Source of the DNA: a virus
Taxonomy: Duplodnaviria; Heunggongvirae; Uroviricota; Caudoviricetes
IMG/VR virus record: IMGVR_UViG_2711768034_000012
DNA length: 9,302 nucleotides
Reading direction: 5' to 3' (one strand)
Positions within the stretch are counted from its first letter, which is position 1. Each line of letters begins with the position of its first letter. Below the pieces are notes generated by a model. The model ran no database searches and was not told the DNA's origin. It saw only the letters and a list, made by a program, of their open reading frames with translations. Both the position numbers and the translations under genes were made by a program. Shown here in pieces: positions 1 to 6,566 of this stretch.

Positions 1-267
1 TGTTCAGCAGATTATCAGGCGCAACTGAAGCGGCATAATCTGCGTGGAAGTATGAGCGCAAAAGGTTGCTGCTACGATAATGCCTGCGTGGAAAGCTTCT
101 TTCATTCGCTGAAAGTGGAATGTATCCATGGAGAACACTTTATCAGCCGGGAAATAATGCGGGCAACGGTGTTTAATTATATCGAATGTGATTACAATCG
201 GTGGCGGCGGCACAGTTGGTGTGGCGGCCTCAGTCCGGAACAATTTGAAAACAAGAACCTCGCTTAG
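1..267 (+). CDS. insF: IS3 transposase OrfB (InsF, DDE integrase-type), C-terminal fragment; N-terminus lies outside the window
   Basis: Open frame from window base 1 to the TAG at 265-267. The ORF-track protein 52..267 is the tail of the same frame. Confidence 0.88.
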
Positions 268-297
268 GCCTGTGTCCATATTACGTGGGTAGGATCA
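259..297. repeat. IS3 right terminal inverted repeat (about 39 bp)
   Basis: Terminal sequence after the transposase stop; identified from the recalled IS3 end sequence. The partner repeat is outside the window. Confidence 0.65.
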
Positions 298-386
298 ATC
301 CCCGGTTCAAAGCTCTGCTGAACAATTGCGATCTTTTCCTGTGTGGTACGCCGTCTGCGTTTCTCCGGCCCTAAGACATCAATCAT
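298..386 (-). pseudogene. insC: IS2 OrfA (InsC) 5' fragment, interrupted after about 29 codons by IS3
   Basis: Minus-strand ATG at 386-384 translates as [29 protein letters not shown], then runs into the IS3 end at 297/298. Confidence 0.8.
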
Positions 387-477
387 CTGTTCTCCAATGA
401 CTAGTCTAAAAACTAGTATTAAGACTATCACTTATTTAAGTGATATTGGTTGTCTGGAGATTCAGGGGGCCAGTCTA
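298..477 (-). mobile_element. IS2 left end (IRL plus the start of orfA/insC) in inverted orientation, truncated by the IS3 insertion
   Basis: The reverse complement of 298-477 reads TAGACTGGCCCCCTGAATCTCCAGACAACCAATATCACTTAAATAAGTGATAGTCTTAATACTAGTTTTTAGACTAGTCATTGGAGAACAGATGATTGATGTCTTAGGGCCGGAGAAACGCAGACGGCGTACCACACAGGAAAAGATCGCAATTGTTCAGCAGAGCTTTGAACCGGGGAT, which is the IS2 left end as I recall it. Confidence 0.85.
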
Positions 478-828
478 ACTGTATGTCACGGGCATACAGG
501 AAAAGACATCATGCTCGGTAAAACGTATACCAAAGCAGAATGCAAAGCACTCTTGAATAAAGACCTTGCCACTGTCGCCAGACAAATTAACCCGTACATC
601 GAAGTCGATATACCGGAAACAACGCGCGGCGCTCTTTACTCATTCGTTTACAACGTGGGTGCTGGCAATTTCAGAACATCGACGCTTCTTCGCAAAATAA
701 ACCAGGGCGATATCAAAGGCGCATGTGATCAGCTACGTCGCTGGACATATGCTGGCGGTAAGCAATGGAAAGGTCTCATGACTCGTCGTGAGATTGAGCG
801 TGAAATCTGTTTGTGGGGTCAGCAATGA
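478..828 (+). pseudogene. Phage endolysin R (P21/DLP12-type lysozyme, GH24 family), 3' portion only; 5' part severed by the IS2/IS3 insertions
   Basis: From 478 the frame reads [116 protein letters not shown], matching the C-terminal two thirds of P21-type SAR endolysins. The membrane-anchor and catalytic-Glu region is not present in this copy. The track ORF 343..828 gains its N-terminus by reading through IS2 sequence. Confidence 0.82.
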
Positions 829-1289
829 ACAGAGTAACCGCGATTATCTCCGCTCTGGTTATCTGCATCATCGTCTGCCTGTCATGGGCTGTTAATCATT
901 ACCGTGATAACGCCATTACCTACAAAGCCCAGCGCGACAAAAATGCCAGAGAACTGAAGCTGGCGAACGCGGCAATTACTGACATGCAGATGCGCCAGCG
1001 TGATGTTGCTGCACTGGATGAAAAATACACGAAGGAGTTAGCTAATGCGAAAGCTGAAAATGATGCTCTGCGTGATGATGTTGCCGCTGGTCGTCGTCGG
1101 TTGCACATCAAAGCAGTCTGTCAGTCAGTGCGTGAAGCCACCACCGCCTCCGGCGTGGATAATGCAGCCTCCCCCCGACTGGCAGACACCGCTGAACGGG
1201 ATTATTTCACCCTCCGGGAACGACTGGTAATGATGCAGGCCCAACTTGAAGGTGCTCAGCAATACATAACCGAACAGTGTTTAAAGTAA
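825..1289 (+). CDS. rz: Rz-type i-spanin (inner-membrane spanin subunit)
   Basis: ATG at 825 overlaps the endolysin stop (ATGA). Protein [23 protein letters not shown]... has an N-terminal TM helix followed by a charged coiled-coil periplasmic domain and matches Rz/RzpD-like proteins. Lysis-cassette synteny R-Rz-Rz1. Confidence 0.85.
1045..1230 (+). CDS. rz1: Rz1-type o-spanin lipoprotein, embedded in the +1 frame of Rz
   Basis: 61 aa [24 protein letters not shown]... with a lipobox (VVGC) and a proline-rich mature region ([15 protein letters not shown]); lies entirely inside Rz. Confidence 0.85.
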
Positions 1290-1360
1290 AATCTTAACTA
1301 CAATATGATTCATTTTGATGATTGTTTCATAAGGAACAGTGAAGTAAGATCTAAGAGGAG

Positions 1361-1387
1361 TTAAATTTTATACAGTATAATCATAAT
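1361..1387 (+). promoter_or_regulatory. Candidate sigma70 promoter upstream of trkG (-35 TTAAAT 1361-1366, -10 CATAAT 1382-1387, 15-bp spacer)
   Basis: Hexamer matches in the AT-rich spacer 1290-1426. Such matches are common by chance in AT-rich DNA. Confidence 0.2.
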
Positions 1388-1426
1388 ATTGCAGCAAGGT
1401 GGTTATAATTGAAAGAATATTTAGAT

Positions 1427-2884
1427 ATGAATACATCTCATGTAAGAGTTGTTACTCATATGTGTGGGTTTCTGGTTTGGCTCTATAGTCTTTCAATGTT
1501 GCCACCAATGGTTGTAGCATTGTTTTATAAAGAAAAAAGCCTGTTCGTTTTCTTTATAACTTTCGTTATGTTTTTTTGCATTGGTGGCGGAGCGTGGTAT
1601 ACAACTAAGAAATCTGGCATTCAATTACGTACCCGTGATGGGTTTATTATAATTGTAATGTTTTGGATTTTGTTTTCTGTTATTAGTGCATTCCCTTTAT
1701 GGATTGACTCAGAACTTAATTTAACGTTCATTGATGCTCTGTTTGAAGGGGTTTCTGGAATAACAACAACAGGAGCAACTGTAATTGATGATGTTAGTTC
1801 ATTACCTCGGGCATATTTGTACTATCGGTCACAGTTAAATTTTATAGGTGGTTTAGGAGTTATTGTTCTGGCGGTTGCTGTATTGCCATTATTGGGTATT
1901 GGTGGTGCAAAGCTTTATCAGTCAGAAATGCCGGGGCCATTTAAGGATGACAAACTCACTCCCCGCCTGGCCGATACGTCACGGACACTGTGGATAACTT
2001 ATTCTTTATTAGGTATTGCTTGTATTGTCTGTTATAGACTTGCAGGAATGCCTTTGTTTGATGCTATTTGTCACGGGATTTCCACAGTTTCGCTTGGTGG
2101 TTTCTCAACTCATAGCGAGAGTATCGGATATTTTAATAACTATTTGGTTGAGCTGGTGGCTGGTTCTTTTTCCCTGCTATCGGCTTTCAACTTCACTCTT
2201 TGGTATATTGTTATTAGCAGGAAAACGATAAAACCTTTAATCAGAGATATTGAACTTCGTTTCTTTCTGTTAATAGCCTTAGGGGTGATCATTGTTACCT
2301 CTTTCCAGGTCTGGCATATAGGTATGTATGACTTGCATGGAAGTTTTATTCATTCGTTTTTTCTTGCCAGCTCCATGCTCACTGATAATGGTTTAGCTAC
2401 GCAGGATTATGCAAACTGGCCCACGCACACGATAGTGTTTTTGCTGTCGTCAAGTTTCTTTGGGGGATGTATAGGTTCAACTTGTGGTGGAATTAAGTCA
2501 CTTCGATTTCTTATACTTTTCAAACAAAGCAAACACGAGATAAATCAGCTTTCTCATCCCAGAGCGTTGTTGAGTGTAAATGTAGGAGGGAAGATAGTTA
2601 CAGATCGTGTAATGAGGTCTGTATGGAGTTTCTTTTTTCTTTATACTCTCTTCACGGTGTTTTTTATACTGGTGTTAAATGGTATGGGATATGATTTTCT
2701 TACATCATTTGCAACAGTGGCTGCATGTATTAATAATATGGGATTAGGTTTTGGGGCTACTGCATCGTCATTCGGAGTGCTTAATGACATTGCAAAATAT
2801 TTAATGTGCATAGCTATGATTCTTGGTCGCCTTGAAATTTATCCTGTTATTATATTGTTTTCAGGTTTTTTTTGGCGCTCCTAA
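1427..2884 (+). CDS. trkG: TrkG, Trk-system K+ uptake membrane protein (TrkH/TrkG family)
   Basis: 485 aa from ATG 1427 (MNTSHVRVVTHMCGF...), polytopic and hydrophobic, with the GxG-type selectivity-filter-like repeats typical of TrkH/TrkG. Strongly AT-rich coding sequence. The ORF track starts at an in-frame TTG at 1409, which sits 6 nt after an AGGTGG Shine-Dalgarno-like sequence, so the start is ambiguous. Confidence 0.9.
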   Translation: MNTSHVRVVTHMCGFLVWLYSLSMLPPMVVALFYKEKSLFVFFITFVMFFCIGGGAWYTTKKSGIQLRTRDGFIIIVMFWILFSVISAFPLWIDSELNLTFIDALFEGVSGITTTGATVIDDVSSLPRAYLYYRSQLNFIGGLGVIVLAVAVLPLLGIGGAKLYQSEMPGPFKDDKLTPRLADTSRTLWITYSLLGIACIVCYRLAGMPLFDAICHGISTVSLGGFSTHSESIGYFNNYLVELVAGSFSLLSAFNFTLWYIVISRKTIKPLIRDIELRFFLLIALGVIIVTSFQVWHIGMYDLHGSFIHSFFLASSMLTDNGLATQDYANWPTHTIVFLLSSSFFGGCIGSTCGGIKSLRFLILFKQSKHEINQLSHPRALLSVNVGGKIVTDRVMRSVWSFFFLYTLFTVFFILVLNGMGYDFLTSFATVAACINNMGLGFGATASSFGVLNDIAKYLMCIAMILGRLEIYPVIILFSGFFWRS

Positions 2885-2968
2885 TATATGGCTGATTTAT
2901 AATTGTGAGTTTAATATTATATTGACTCACTCATTGATCCAATACCTAACTTTACCAGCAACACCTCC

Positions 2969-3005
2969 GCCCCCAGTAGCACTGGCTGCTGGGGTGCGTT
3001 TTATT
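2969..3005 (+). terminator. Candidate intrinsic terminator downstream of trkG
   Basis: Hairpin CCCCAGTAGC/GCTGCTGGGG (one mismatch) with a 4-nt loop, followed by TGCGTTTTATT. Confidence 0.35.
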
Positions 3006-3021
3006 CATAAAGCAAGGCTGT

Positions 3022-3810
3022 ATGAGCGAGAAATTAAAGATAGTCTATCGCCCATTACAAGAATTGTCACCGTATGCGCACAACGCCAGGACGCACAGTA
3101 CTGAGCAGGTGGCACAACTGGTAGAAAGTATTAAGCAATTCGGCTGGACTAATCCGGTGCTGATTGACGAAAAGGGCGAAATTATTGCGGGTCACGGTCG
3201 TGTTATGGCGGCTGAAATGCTCAAAATGGATTCTGTTCCGGTCATTGTTCTGTCTGGCCTGACGGATGAGCAGAAAAAGGCGTACCGCCTGGCAGATAAT
3301 CGCCTACCGATGAATGCTGGCTGGGATGAAGATCTGTTGCGGATGGAGCTGTCGGACCTAATCAATGCTGATTTTGATGTCTCCCTGACAGGCTTCGGCC
3401 CGACAGAAATTGATGAACTGTTGACGGATGTTTTGCCCGGTACAGGAAATAAGGAGGAGCCGTATACGACGAAAATTGATACGCCTGTTTATGAGCCGTC
3501 GGGCGGTAAACCGGATATCAGTGAACTGTATGACGATACGAAAACTCAGGAGCTGATCAGCCGGATACGTTCGGCGTCCCTTGATCCTGATATTGAGAAA
3601 TTCCTCCTGTGTGCGGCAGAACGTCACACGGTGTTTAATTTCAGCAGAATTGCGGACTATTACGCTCATGCCCCCGCTGAAATTCAGTGCCTTTTCGAGG
3701 AGTCGGCGCTGGTGATCATTGATTATCAGCAGGCTATTGAAAATGGATTTGTCCGAATGACGCAGCGCATGGTGGCGATCATGCATAGCGGGGAGGAGGA
3801 ATATGCGTGA
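3022..3810 (+). CDS. ParB N-terminal domain (ParB/Srx fold) protein, YnaK-like, with no fused enzymatic domain
   Basis: 262 aa. The N-terminus (KIVYRPLQELSPYAHNARTHSTEQVAQLVESIKQFGWTNPVLIDEKGEIIAGHGRVMAAEMLKMDSVPVIVL...YRLADNRL) has the ParB N-terminal domain signature including a GHGR-type motif. It is followed by DFDVSLTGFGPTEIDELL, as seen after ParB domains in phage ParB-methyltransferase fusions. SD AAGG precedes ATG 3022. Confidence 0.72.
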   Translation: MSEKLKIVYRPLQELSPYAHNARTHSTEQVAQLVESIKQFGWTNPVLIDEKGEIIAGHGRVMAAEMLKMDSVPVIVLSGLTDEQKKAYRLADNRLPMNAGWDEDLLRMELSDLINADFDVSLTGFGPTEIDELLTDVLPGTGNKEEPYTTKIDTPVYEPSGGKPDISELYDDTKTQELISRIRSASLDPDIEKFLLCAAERHTVFNFSRIADYYAHAPAEIQCLFEESALVIIDYQQAIENGFVRMTQRMVAIMHSGEEEYA

Positions 3811-4735
3811 TGATTTTTGCGCCTTTATTCTGACTCACGGGCGACCGGACAAAGTTCTGACTTACCGGACGTGGCGTCGTGCTGGCTATACCGGGAAAAT
3901 TTTTATCGTTGTTGATGATGAAGATAAGACACGGCATCAGTACATGGCTGAATTTGGTGAACAGGTGCTGGTATTTTCCAAAGCCGATATTGCCAGTCGT
4001 TTTGACGAAGCCGATAATTTTGGTGACCACCGCTCAATTTTTTACGCCCGTAATGCCTGTTTCGACCTGGCAAAACTGGTCGGGTGTAAATACTTCATTC
4101 AGCTCGATGATGATTATCACGAGTTCCAGTTTCGGGTGGATCGCAACTATGACCAGGCCTATTTCCCGATAAGGAAACTGGATGCGATCCTTTCTGAAAT
4201 GCTGGCGTATTACGAATCAATACCCGCGCTTTCCATCGCTATGTCGCAGGGCGGGGATTTTCTTGGTGACAATGGCGGCCATGCTTCGTGGGTGAAACGC
4301 AAGGCAATGAACAGCTTTATCTGTTCGGTTGATCGACCGTTCTCATTCATGGGGCGCATTAACGAGGATGTGAATACGTACACGAATCTCGGTCGCCGTG
4401 GTGAATTGTTTATGACGATCGGTGCTGTCCAGTTAGGGCAGAAACAGACGCAGAAAAACAGCGGCGGAATGACCGAGCTGTATCTGGATTCCGGGACCTA
4501 CGTTAAAAGTTTTTATTCCGTCATGTATGCGCCGTCGTGCGTAAAAATCTCACTGATGGGCGCCAGCCATAAACGCATTCACCATCAGGTCACCTGGAAC
4601 AACGCTGCAGTAAAAATCCTTCACGAAAAATACAGGAAGAAGACACCCTGCATATTAATGGGGGTGACAAATGATTCCGTATTCGAAAGTCGAGTCTCTG
4701 GCAGCGTGCCGGATGACTGCACAACAAATCGCTGA
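3803..4735 (+). CDS. Soluble GT-A-fold-like (GT2-like) glycosyltransferase-family protein, hypothetical
   Basis: 310 aa. ATG 3803 overlaps the upstream stop (ATGCGTGA) and is preceded by the strong SD GGGAGGAGGA at 3791-3800. Motif order CAFILTHGRPDKV ... IFIVVDDED ... ARNACFDLAKLVGCKYFIQLDDDY parallels GT-A enzymes (PTYN-like first strand, DD after strand 2, ARN...DxD). No transmembrane segment is evident. Confidence 0.55.
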   Translation: MRDDFCAFILTHGRPDKVLTYRTWRRAGYTGKIFIVVDDEDKTRHQYMAEFGEQVLVFSKADIASRFDEADNFGDHRSIFYARNACFDLAKLVGCKYFIQLDDDYHEFQFRVDRNYDQAYFPIRKLDAILSEMLAYYESIPALSIAMSQGGDFLGDNGGHASWVKRKAMNSFICSVDRPFSFMGRINEDVNTYTNLGRRGELFMTIGAVQLGQKQTQKNSGGMTELYLDSGTYVKSFYSVMYAPSCVKISLMGASHKRIHHQVTWNNAAVKILHEKYRKKTPCILMGVTNDSVFESRVSGSVPDDCTTNR

Positions 4736-4922
4736 CGTTCTGGATGTTGATCTGAACCGACTGAAAGAAAATCGGGAAGCAATGACAAATTTTTACGCGT
4801 CCATCCGTAAGGGCAGAGCGAAAGGTGAAGCCGAGCTACGGGCGGCATTGTTTAAGCTTGCCAGAAAAGGGGATGCCTTTGCCCTGCGCGAACTACTCAG
4901 GGTGGATAAAAATCAGGACTAA
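4671..4922 (+). CDS. Small hypothetical protein (83 aa), possibly a DNA-binding or packaging accessory protein
   Basis: ATG 4671 preceded by a GGGGGTGA SD-like sequence. Overlaps the 3' end of the glycosyltransferase-like gene by 65 nt. Same frame as the downstream terminase-like ORF, separated by TAA plus one codon. Confidence 0.4.
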   Translation: MIPYSKVESLAACRMTAQQIADVLDVDLNRLKENREAMTNFYASIRKGRAKGEAELRAALFKLARKGDAFALRELLRVDKNQD

Positions 4923-4925
4923 CTG

Positions 4926-5552
4926 ATGAGCAGACCGGACTGGGGGGCGTTGCAGCAGGAGTATATTGCTGAATACACCCGCTCCGGTATATCTCCGGTG
5001 GCATGGTGTGAAGCAAGGGGACTGAATTACGCAACAGCCCGTCGTTACATCAAAAAACCTCCGAAAAATGCGCAGACAGAAATGCGCAAAACTGCGCAAA
5101 AAAGTGCGCAGAAAAAATCTGCGCAGACTGCACAAAAGCGGAACGGAAAATCTCAGGAAAAAAAGCCAGTATCCGATGCGTACCTGAATGAGGGCGATGC
5201 GGAAGAAATTTCGTTCTGTCCCGATGAATTCGGCGTTTCTGACCAGCAGGCGAAATTCGCAATGCTGGTTGCCCAGGGGAAAAAACTCGTTGAGGCATAT
5301 CGCCTGGCAGGATACGAGTCAGAGGGGAATGCGGCCTACGTAACCGCCAGCCAGCTCCTAAGAAATCCTAAGGTTTTTCGTGCTATCAGCTACTTCCGCA
5401 ATCAGTACCAGAAACGCTATACCGCAGACCTGGATTTACTGGTGAGTCAGTTGATGGCCATTGTCCAGGCCGACCCCAATCAGTTGGCACAATTTCGCCG
5501 TGTTAACTGCCGTTATTGCTGGGGCGAGAATCATCACTACCGCAGCAGATGA
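4926..5552 (+). CDS. Terminase small subunit-like protein (Terminase_2-type DNA-binding region), possibly C-terminally truncated
   Basis: 208 aa. N-terminal HTH-like segment (ISPVAWCEARGLNYATARRYIKK), a K/Q/A-rich low-complexity linker, then QQAKFAMLVAQGKKLVEAYRLAGYESEGNAAYVTASQLLRNPKVFRAI, which resembles the conserved DNA-binding motif of phage small terminases. Ends abruptly (RVNCRYCWGENHHYRSR*) with no large terminase gene following. Confidence 0.55.
   Translation: MSRPDWGALQQEYIAEYTRSGISPVAWCEARGLNYATARRYIKKPPKNAQTEMRKTAQKSAQKKSAQTAQKRNGKSQEKKPVSDAYLNEGDAEEISFCPDEFGVSDQQAKFAMLVAQGKKLVEAYRLAGYESEGNAAYVTASQLLRNPKVFRAISYFRNQYQKRYTADLDLLVSQLMAIVQADPNQLAQFRRVNCRYCWGENHHYRSR
5069..5133 (+). 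repeat. Array of five TGCGCA hexamers plus one degenerate TGCACA, spaced 8-15 bp, inside the terminase small-subunit-like gene
   Basis: TGCGCA at 5069, 5083, 5093, 5105 and 5120; TGCACA at 5128. Encodes the AQK/SAQ-rich linker. Confidence 0.6.
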
Positions 5553-5676
5553 AGCACCTACGATAACCAGAAAAAAAGCCTCCCCGGCTGCCGTGATCGC
5601 AAAAGCCAGTGCTGAGGCGATTAGTTGATTTTCCGTTATTCCTCCTGTGGTACTGCCCTACAGGGGGACGCATTGA

Positions 5677-6138
5677 ATGAGGTTATGGATGTTTATTCTT
5701 AATCAGAAAATTATCATTGGTGGAGAACGCTGGTTTACGCCAATGAAGGACTTAAAACCTGTAGACGGGTTAAAACTGTTGGTGGCAAGCAGCGATAACG
5801 ATCAGTATCGCTCCCGTAATGCATTAATCCGTCGCCACATTGAGAAAATGGATGCCAGTTTGCACGTCGGAACGAAGGAGTTTGATATTTCAAAGGTTTC
5901 CGAGGTGGATTCTGTTGATGATTTACTCATTGATAATGCCGCTCGTTATCTGCTGAAAGACTGGAAAGGGGTTGGTGAACTGGTTAATGGTGTTGAGGTT
6001 GCACTGGAATATACGGCAGAACGAGGGATCGCGCTGCTTAAGCAGAATCCAGAGTTGTACTGGCAGATCCTTGCAGAAGCAGCCAGCATCGCCCAGGGTA
6101 AAGAGCAGCAGAAGCAGGATACGATAAAAAAGCCATAG
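5677..6138 (+). CDS. Tail assembly chaperone (lambda gpG-like)
   Basis: 153 aa acidic protein. ATG 5677 is preceded by GGGGG at 5663-5667; an alternative in-frame ATG is at 5689. It directly precedes a -1-frame ORF and the tape-measure gene, the G/GT/H synteny of siphovirus tail modules. Confidence 0.6.
   Translation: MRLWMFILNQKIIIGGERWFTPMKDLKPVDGLKLLVASSDNDQYRSRNALIRRHIEKMDASLHVGTKEFDISKVSEVDSVDDLLIDNAARYLLKDWKGVGELVNGVEVALEYTAERGIALLKQNPELYWQILAEAASIAQGKEQQKQDTIKKP
6126..6132 (+). promoter_or_regulatory. Candidate -1 programmed ribosomal frameshift slippery heptamer A-AAA-AAG
   Basis: In-frame X-XXY-YYZ heptamer two codons before the chaperone stop (TAG 6136-6138). The -1 frame is open from here through 6446. 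Confidence 0.5.
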
Positions 6139-6446
6139 CTGCCCAGCGGTGGTTATCGGAGTTCGGGGGAGAAAGGGGGGAAAAGGCAAGATGGAAGCGA
6201 GAAAAACTCAGGTTGCCACCGATACCGGAACCAGAAATAGACCCGGTGCTTAAGGAGTTGTTGTACGCCTATTCGGTAATATCCCGTGCCCGACGTTATG
6301 CTGGAATGGCTGGGGTGCCTTTGCCTTTATCTCTGACAGAGATAAATGAATATTTAGCCACTCATCCGGTATTGATTGAGCGCGATGAATTTGAAGCAGT
6401 GATCTTTGCACTGGATGACCAGTATTTTCAGGAGCAGTGTGTGTAG
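6132..6446 (+). CDS. T segment of the tail assembly chaperone G-T frameshift fusion (lambda gpT-like)
   Basis: The -1 frame relative to the chaperone gene is open from 6132 to TAG 6444-6446 and encodes ...LPPIPEPEIDPVLKELLYAYSVISRARRYAGMAGVPLPLSLTEINEYLATHPVLIERDEFEAVIFALDDQYFQEQCV. The track ORF 6213..6446 starts at an internal TTG. Confidence 0.55.
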   Translation, partial: AIAAQRWLSEFGGERGEKARWKREKLRLPPIPEPEIDPVLKELLYAYSVISRARRYAGMAGVPLPLSLTEINEYLATHPVLIERDEFEAVIFALDDQYFQEQCV

Positions 6447-6566
6447 TTGTTAATTACGTACACTCTGTTACAGAGATGTGATGGTGTCTTTAATTAAATC
6501 GATGATGCTCCTGGAGAAAAGCATTGCGTGGCCTCGTAATCGCTATATCTACTATTATGTCGCCTG

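Follow-up and report, generated by a model that had tools for sequence, protein, structure and literature searches.

How a lysis cassette came to be broken by insertion sequences (ISs) at the left edge of a 9,302-nt viral stretch (IMG/VR record IMGVR_UViG_2711768034_000012, Caudoviricetes; hereafter the window), and whether its loss reflects domestication of the prophage that carries it, are the questions raised by this locus. The original prediction, made from sequence alone, described positions 1–828 as an IS3 nested in an IS2 that is itself nested in an endolysin gene. Alignment shows the window to be 100% identical to positions 3–9304 of contig CXWS01000055.1 (L016) from a short-read draft Escherichia coli assembly (GCA_001268745.1), and this contig ends 299 bp inside IS3. 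We consider positions 1–828, with high confidence, to be the right-hand margin of a cluster of ISs that interrupts the lysis cassette of a cryptic Rac prophage carried by this draft genome.

Loci sharing the window sequence carry the flanks of the Rac site, with ttcA, intR, xis, recT and recE on the left and uspF, ompN and ydbK on the right. The prophage is identified as Rac by integration at ttcA, by intR and trkG, and by the uspF/ompN right end (flanks from L015, L026 and L016), and by annotation and alignment K-12 Rac is 99% identical to the window from Rz through trkG to ynaK and again from ydaY to ynaA. The gene trkG, which identifies the prophage, is also annotated in two further loci (L001 and L002). 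IS2, IS3, the R21/RrrD signal-anchor-release (SAR) endolysin, the embedded Rz/Rz1 pair and Rac with trkG are textbook elements, and cryptic prophages are known to decay, among other routes, through ISs that insert into their genes. The features of the locus are collected in Table 1.

Table 1. Features of the interrupted lysis cassette and the adjoining trkG gene, in window coordinates
Feature	Position	Strand	Basis
IS3 right end: C-terminal 88 codons of orfB (1–264), stop codon (265–267), terminal inverted repeat	1..297	+	sequence identity, Pfam, NCBIfam
IS2 left 180 nt: orfA start at 386, codons 1–29 and 2 nt of codon 30	298..477	-	exact match in L026
Candidate right-hand copy of the 3-bp IS3 target duplication, ATC	298..300	.	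inferred; left copy beyond contig
Chimeric 40-aa ORF: IS2 OrfA residues 1–29 running into the IS3 terminal repeat	264..386	-	translation; NF006928 1–32
Artefactual 161-aa ORF: 45 antisense IS2-end codons fused in frame to the endolysin fragment	343..828	+	translation
3′ fragment of a phage-21/RrrD-type SAR endolysin, residues 50–165 and stop	478..828	+	PF00959 19–125 of 125
Right-hand copy of the 5-bp IS2 target duplication, ACTGT: codon T50 and 2 nt of V51	478..482	.	L026 junctions
Rz (i-spanin), 154 aa, full length; start overlaps endolysin stop	825..1289	+	PF03245
Rz1 (o-spanin lipoprotein), 61 aa, full length, embedded in Rz in the +1 frame	1045..1230	+	PF06085
trkG, Rac prophage cargo K+ transporter	1427..2884	+	PF02386; TIGR00933 above cut-off; 99% identical to K-12 Rac

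The endolysin fragment and the spanin genes

The lysozyme reading frame resumes at 478, directly after the outermost base of IS2 at 477, as the original prediction had read it, and ends in ...CLWGQQ followed by the stop codon. The encoded fragment is identical to residues 50–165 of the intact 165-aa endolysins of loci L005, L006, L009, L011 and L013, a protein encoded ahead of Rz and trkG in many E. coli genomes. Since the fragment carries no amino-acid change relative to these intact alleles, the lesion looks recent. The intact protein matches PDB entries 3hde and 4zpu over residues 1–165, with two substitutions in the 4zpu alignment, and the intact sister alleles thus correspond over all 165 residues to R21 of phage 21 and RrrD of DLP12 (PDB 3hde, 3hdf, 4zpu). 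The gene order of phage 21 and DLP12, with holin, endolysin and Rz with Rz1 embedded in it, is also common to the Rac cassette. Unlike the R21/RrrD enzyme, the window encodes residues 50–165 only, and is a gene fragment lacking the SAR domain, E35 and D44.

The catalytic motif of these lysozymes is E-X8-D-X5-T (PMC9239132), which corresponds to E35, D44 and T50 of the intact endolysin. T50 alone is encoded in the window, E35 and D44 lying across IS2, and the N-terminal SAR domain is likewise missing with residues 1–49. The Phage_lysozyme domain (PF00959) is recognized with E = 2e-38, over profile positions 19–125 of 125 only. Because IS2 lies between the part of the gene that encodes the SAR domain, E35 and D44 and the part that encodes T50 and the remaining GH24 domain, an active muramidase is not expected to be made from this locus, and as the fragment has neither the complete motif nor the SAR domain it is to be annotated as a pseudogene fragment. 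The original prediction attributed the severing of the endolysin N-terminus, with its catalytic Glu, to two successive IS hits. The loss of the Glu (E35) stands, as does that of D44 and the SAR domain, but IS2 alone severs the gene; IS3 cuts the IS2 orfA. The retained fragment still has the third residue of the motif.

An uninterrupted 161-aa frame runs through this region at 343–828, and a 143-aa version of it, starting at 397, was called in the source assembly; both could be taken for a functional lysozyme with a re-tailored N-terminus. We regard such a protein as extremely improbable, since it would lack E35, D44 and the SAR export signal and would begin with antisense IS2 sequence. No promoter-like or consensus-like site was found upstream, on the + strand at 160–480, and the product is on one contig only: the 143-aa protein is on record solely on the source contig, and an exact look-up of the 161-aa product in the protein collection returned nothing. 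The first 45 codons of the frame are the IS2 5′ untranslated region and inverted repeat read in antisense, which makes the ORF an artefact, in agreement with the earlier reading of it as read-through from IS2. An outward promoter in the IS end, driving the endolysin fragment, was also considered and was rejected for want of a consensus-like site in the same + strand interval.

The two spanin genes are both full length, with Rz1 wholly embedded in Rz as in an embedded two-component spanin. The exact Rz protein occurs in 349 blocks of the collection, intact prophages included, and is identical to that of L005–L013 and L026; Rz1 is identical to the Rz1 of intact prophages, and its ...VVGC/T sequence resembles a lipobox. 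The claim that Rz and Rz1 had been left intact is thus borne out, and the three proteins encoded by Rz, Rz1 and trkG are all unchanged in sequence in the window. If the two ISs are nested, at least 2.6 kb of IS DNA would lie between Rz/Rz1 and the late promoter, and the IS ends present no consensus-like promoter directed towards these two genes.

K-12 Rac, which occupies the same chromosomal site, likewise lacks a functional endolysin and morphogenesis genes, but has lost its cassette in another way. There the holin gene, the endolysin gene and the first ~20 bp of Rz are deleted, leaving the pseudogene rzpR, and homology to the window begins at position 845. In the window lineage, in contrast, Rz and Rz1 are still full length and 70% of the endolysin gene, at its 3′ end, remains, with function lost via IS2. 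The deletion joints elsewhere in the two prophages also differ, being located at 5535–5541 in the window and at ynaK/ydaY in K-12 Rac. At the former joint the genes from terL through the tail tube are missing; terS is truncated, and the tape-measure gene is halved by a break at 8131/8132. The truncated tape-measure protein, which marks the lineage, is present on 14 contigs. The early region between recE and Q is missing in the sister genomes described below (L015 and L026). The prophage can no longer make virions.

IS2 in the endolysin gene and the sister genomes

The prediction that positions 298–477 belong to IS2 is confirmed by an exact match to L026 positions 9788–9967, within a full 1331-bp IS2; the segment also aligns to the annotated IS2 of E. 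coli F467 (L001). The left inverted repeat of IS2, TAGACTGGCCCC... (also read as TAGACTGG...), lies on the minus strand with its outermost base at 477, and the OrfA fragment matches the profile 'IS2 repressor TnpA' (NF006928) at positions 1–32 of 121. The termini and the OrfA fragment are those of IS2 of E. coli, for which the length of 1331 bp and the 5-bp duplication were seen in related loci. A complete IS2 with intact orfA and orfB is absent from the window, however: sequence reading and translation bear out the proposed cut of orfA after codon 29 by the IS3 end at 297/298.

Two sister genomes are nearly identical to the window over positions 298–9302. The closest (GCA_045610645.1; L015/L027) has 1 mismatch and 2 gaps (99.97% over ~9 kb), and the second (GCA_974490235.1; L026/L036) has 4 mismatches and 2 gaps (99.91% over ~9 kb). 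At exactly the site seen in the window, L026 contains a complete 1331-bp IS2 (8637–9967) with ACTGT on both sides. Its left junction reads ...GGACTGT/TGGATTTGCC, or in longer form ...GTATGGACTGT/TGGATTTGCC, and agrees with the junction predicted beforehand; its right junction reads CCAGTCTA/ACTGTATG (also given as CCAGTCTA/ACTGTATGTC). Directly upstream of IS2 are the gene for a 71-aa holin and endolysin codons 1–50. Of the features that the original prediction had proposed to look for upstream of the window, this sister thus has the 5-bp target duplication, the 5′ part of the endolysin gene and the holin gene, the right-hand copy of the duplication alone being visible in the window. Because ACTGT flanks a complete IS2 at the same nucleotide in L026, the IS2 insertion is a simple transposition into the endolysin gene.

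In both L015 and L026, IS2 continues without a break past the point that matches window 297/298, and no IS3 is present in it. The IS3 junction therefore arose after IS2 had inserted, and in the strain of the window only. In L015, IS2 is truncated at nt ~625 and fused to recE, by a deletion that removes the right part of IS2, the endolysin 5′ end, the holin gene, Q and the remaining early region. Three near-identical genomes thus represent three states, IS2 only (L026), IS2 with a deletion to recE (L015) and IS2 with IS3 (window), and make the stepwise decay of a prophage visible in a clean and datable case. The first step, shown by the sister genome, was the transposition of IS2 into endolysin codon 50/51, in the orientation opposite to the lysis genes and with duplication of ACTGT. 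In the second step, confined to the lineage of the window strain, the right end of IS3 became joined to IS2 nt 180, most likely by simple IS3 transposition.

The IS3/IS2 junction

Positions 1–297 were predicted to be the right end of IS3, and they are 100% identical to L001 positions 2411–2707, annotated by PGAP as 'IS3-like element IS3 family transposase' in E. coli F467. The 88-aa partial ORF matches the DDE transposase domains rve_2 and rve_3 of IS3 OrfB (Pfam) and positions 288–369 of 369 of NF033516, where its score falls below the whole-protein cut-off for the sole reason that the protein is partial. The terminal repeat (5′-TGATCC... / ...GGATCA-3′) is present, as positions 259–297 equal the right terminus of the L001 IS3; the terminus, read as ...GGGTAGGATCA, ...GGTAGGATCA or ...CCTGTGTCCATATTACGTGGGTAGGATCA, ends at 297. 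The complete IS3 in L001 is 1258 bp long and is flanked by TAA on both sides. Termini and OrfB fragment thus match IS3 of E. coli, with the length of 1258 bp and the 3-bp duplication known from related loci; unlike full elements, the IS2 and IS3 copies are both incomplete within the window.

IS2 nt 180 falls inside orfA codon 30, so the IS2 copy of the window cannot make OrfA or OrfAB. The IS3 junction parts the rest of OrfA from its promoter and start codon, leaving 29 codons, and inactivates IS2 in cis, in which respect this copy differs from functional IS2. The 40-aa ORF that spans the junction is annotated as a hypothetical protein (WP_283205044.1 [Escherichia coli]) and is a junction artefact. 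An exact-protein look-up places it on two contigs only, the source contig and L004. For annotation, this ORF and the 161/143-aa "lysozyme" are best recorded as junction artefacts or pseudogene fragments, and the locus as Rac with an IS2-disrupted endolysin.

The proposal of an IS3 nested in IS2 is upheld for the right-hand junction and for the arrival of IS3 after IS2; the far side of IS3, where nesting would place the other 1151 nt of IS2, lies beyond the end of the contig. In the genome of the window, a simple nested insertion is probably the correct reading. Under nesting, the left end of IS3 is expected to read GGGAGACCGTCATC/TGATCTTACCC, with IS2 from nt 181 onward and an ATC duplication, and GGGTAGGATCAATCCCCGG and GAGACCGTCATCTGATCTTACCC are sequences that would mark an IS3 in IS2 at nt 180. 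The 92-aa OrfA remainder predicted for the left side was dropped as a marker, being commonly called at ordinary IS2 copies.

The nucleotide-exact IS3/IS2 junction has a single other public record, L004, a Logan contig of 1.5 kb, in which the IS2 left end abuts ymgF and a complete IS3 borders on a CRISPR repeat of type I-E and a spacer. The repeat and spacer lie to the left of IS3 and ymgF to the right of IS2, and the flanks of that IS3 (att/atc) form no duplication. This exact junction has therefore originated, or been transferred, on two occasions, and on one of these the far side of IS3 is not IS2. Since the junction recurs in L004 without a duplication, rearrangement after insertion, or transfer by recombination, is a real alternative to simple nesting: the window junction might stem from an IS3-adjacent deletion or inversion, or have been copied by recombination with another IS2::IS3. 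The DNA to the left of IS3 would then be something other than the remainder of this IS2, and the holin gene and the 5′ part of the endolysin gene could be absent or distant. That the closest sister, L015, already lacks the IS2 right part, the holin gene and Q up to recE is in keeping with this. So is the record of P0001, the chimeric endolysin::IS2 protein of the left junction, which is listed for two other assemblies only and not for the source assembly, although absence from a protein index is no proof of absence from a genome. The IS copies checked at related loci, however, are simple insertions with duplications (IS2 with ACTGT or GTTGG, IS3 with TAA), and L004 differs from the window at 5 positions and by a gap over 480 bp, and is therefore not the same allele. 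On balance we consider rearrangement or recombination possible, and clearly less probable than simple nesting.

Searches for the junctions elsewhere gave few matches. A 60-bp query across the IS3/IS2 junction had no true match in 5426 complete E. coli genomes, GTDB representative genomes and JGI metagenomes likewise lacked this junction, and neither of the two window junctions was found in the complete RefSeq E. coli genomes. The IS2/endolysin junction gave no match in pattern scans of IMG/VR, GTDB representatives and JGI metagenomes, the predicted left junction was absent from IMG/VR, and a predicted 78-aa recE/IS2 chimera was not in the protein collection. Of the candidates inspected, H56 proved to be an IS3 with a flank of chance similarity only, and in H98 and H104 the IS3 and IS2 are each complete and lie side by side in the ETT2 region, without forming the window junction. 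The specific allele of the window appears to be rare.

A draft contig that ends inside IS3, and an identical junction at another locus in another strain, also bring to mind an assembly artefact, in which the 180-bp IS2 repeat led the assembler to attach an IS2::IS3 junction that belongs elsewhere in the genome. We consider this very unlikely. The break falls exactly at the IS3 terminal nucleotide, as expected from transposition, the 180 bp between the unique endolysin sequence and the junction can be bridged by read pairs, and the contig is carried by two samples.

The junction has the same orientation in both IS2 copies, in the Rac endolysin gene and in ymgF, and the IS alleles differ between the two strains. 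It is conceivable, but in our view improbable, that IS3 has a nucleotide-exact preferred target in IS2 orfA (nt 180/181) or that an IS2::IS3 allele spreads among IS2 copies by recombination; in a related reading, the Rac lysis cassette would be a selected and recurrent IS target. A true IS3 target in IS2 orfA would mean that one IS repeatedly disables another.

Repeated loss of the Rac lysis cassette

The Rac lysis cassette has been lost repeatedly and by different routes, namely in the window lineage, by deletion in K-12 and by IS hits in other strains. E. coli F467 (NZ_OY754409.1) and PSJ-36 (NZ_AP027648.1) carry the same cassette upstream of trkG and the same two IS types as the window. Their insertion sites differ from those of the window, and the events are therefore independent; their IS3 copies are not inside IS2.

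These recurrent hits raise the possibility that an inactive Rac endolysin is advantageous and that insertions into it have been selected, in line with the domestication suggested by the original prediction. F467 has an IS3 at the holin/endolysin boundary, with a TAA duplication, and another in Rz, as well as an IS2 12 bp upstream of the window site in the same orientation, with a GTTGG duplication. PSJ-36 has an IS3 in the endolysin gene, further complete genomes carry an IS3 within or next to this gene, and at least 6 distinct endolysin::IS2 read-through chimeras are present in the protein collection. K-12 Rac has lost both holin and endolysin by deletion. Among complete genomes with the Rz–trkG junction, a contiguous holin–endolysin–Rz arrangement of the window type is present in ~715 of 1527, although the remainder includes other endolysin alleles (H148) and not losses only.

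Other observations speak against selection. The holin is the part of a lysis cassette that is expected to be lethal on its own, and L026 retains an intact ORF for a pinholin-type holin; because of this intact ORF, the IS2 hit leaves the main hazard in place. The head and tail genes are already gone, and the sisters also lack the early region between recE and Q. ISs have moreover been reported to cluster with other ISs in genome-plasticity regions (PMC13548323). Selection for endolysin loss is accordingly an unlikely explanation, and we take the loss for decay that is neutral or nearly so, in a region permissive for ISs, with no new mechanism. The repeated loss of the cassette could nevertheless feed a proper test of selection. 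The events at this locus are ordinary prophage decay brought about by well-known elements, and of an already-known kind. Only the finding of the exact IS3/IS2 junction a second time, in an unrelated setting, is mildly unusual.

IS insertions in Rac lysis cassettes

In a survey of complete E. coli genomes (ecoli_genomes), the Rz-trkG junction was found in 1527 of 5426, and only ~715 of these 1527 carry a contiguous holin-endolysin-Rz-trkG arrangement of this type. The remaining Rz-trkG genomes include K-12-type deletions, IS insertions, and alternative endolysin alleles.

Independent IS insertions are present in the Rac lysis cassettes of two other E. coli strains, F467 (L001 1200-6300, NZ_OY754409.1), with three insertions, and PSJ-36 (L002). 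More IS2 sites in the same endolysin are revealed by the endolysin::IS2 read-through proteins P0002-P0007. The 3′ portion of this endolysin also occurs in Bor-carrying lambdoid prophages (L031-L035), where it is preceded by IS1 in L031 (9116-10318), while the contigs of L032-L035 start a few dozen bp upstream of it. These upstream contexts hint at further IS disruptions of this endolysin gene elsewhere.

Features of the window and of IS-disrupted lysis cassettes in other E. coli
Record	Feature	Location	Details
Window	ParB_N-domain protein and TET-associated glycosyltransferase (TAGT) genes	3022-4735	262 aa and 310 aa, overlapping
Window	Deletion joint	5535-5541	7-bp overlap
Window	Tape-measure gene break	8131/8132	within 8131-8413
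Window	sitA, complete	within 8337-9302	304 aa, minus strand
F467	IS3	essD/rrrD boundary	
F467	IS2	in rrrD	12 bp away from the IS2 site in the window
F467	IS3	in Rz	
PSJ-36	IS3	in rrrD	

The IS3/IS2 junction and its surroundings

Alignment of window positions 1-480 with positions 1-1519 of the Logan contig L004 (SRR31312379), from a different strain, shows a junction between the IS3 right end and IS2 nt 180 that is identical to the nucleotide. In L004, ymgF adjoins IS2, a type I-E CRISPR repeat with a 21-nt spacer lies at the IS3 left end, and no 3-bp duplication was found around IS3. The loci brought together in this contig are presumably widely separated in K-12. Recurrence of the junction suggests a hotspot, recombinational spread, or IS3-mediated rearrangement.

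The region upstream of window position 298 has its counterpart in the closest sister genome (L015 3219-3866, GCA_045610645.1), where recE is directly joined to an IS2 cut at ~nt 625, with deletion of the right part of IS2, the endolysin 5′ end, holin, Q, and the early region. Single-base homopolymer gaps at this locus are probably long-read errors.

Gene losses and cargo genes in the window

At the deletion joint, terL, portal, head genes, and tail tube are gone, leaving a terS of 208 aa (vs. 364 aa in intact prophages), and the sequence picks up again just before ydaY. K-12 Rac differs in having a ynaK/ydaY joint. The tape-measure protein is 506 aa, vs. 747 aa in the record L029, and 3′ of its break lies a ~205 bp fragment with an 86-aa ORF matching Lambda_tail_I.

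The ParB_N/TAGT pair, just 3′ of trkG, may constitute a module for DNA modification in Rac-like phages; in K-12 Rac, truncated ynaK is all that remains of this region. With sitBCD deleted and only ~52 bp of sitB remaining, sitA is an orphan Mn/Fe-binding protein gene adjoining uspF and ompN.
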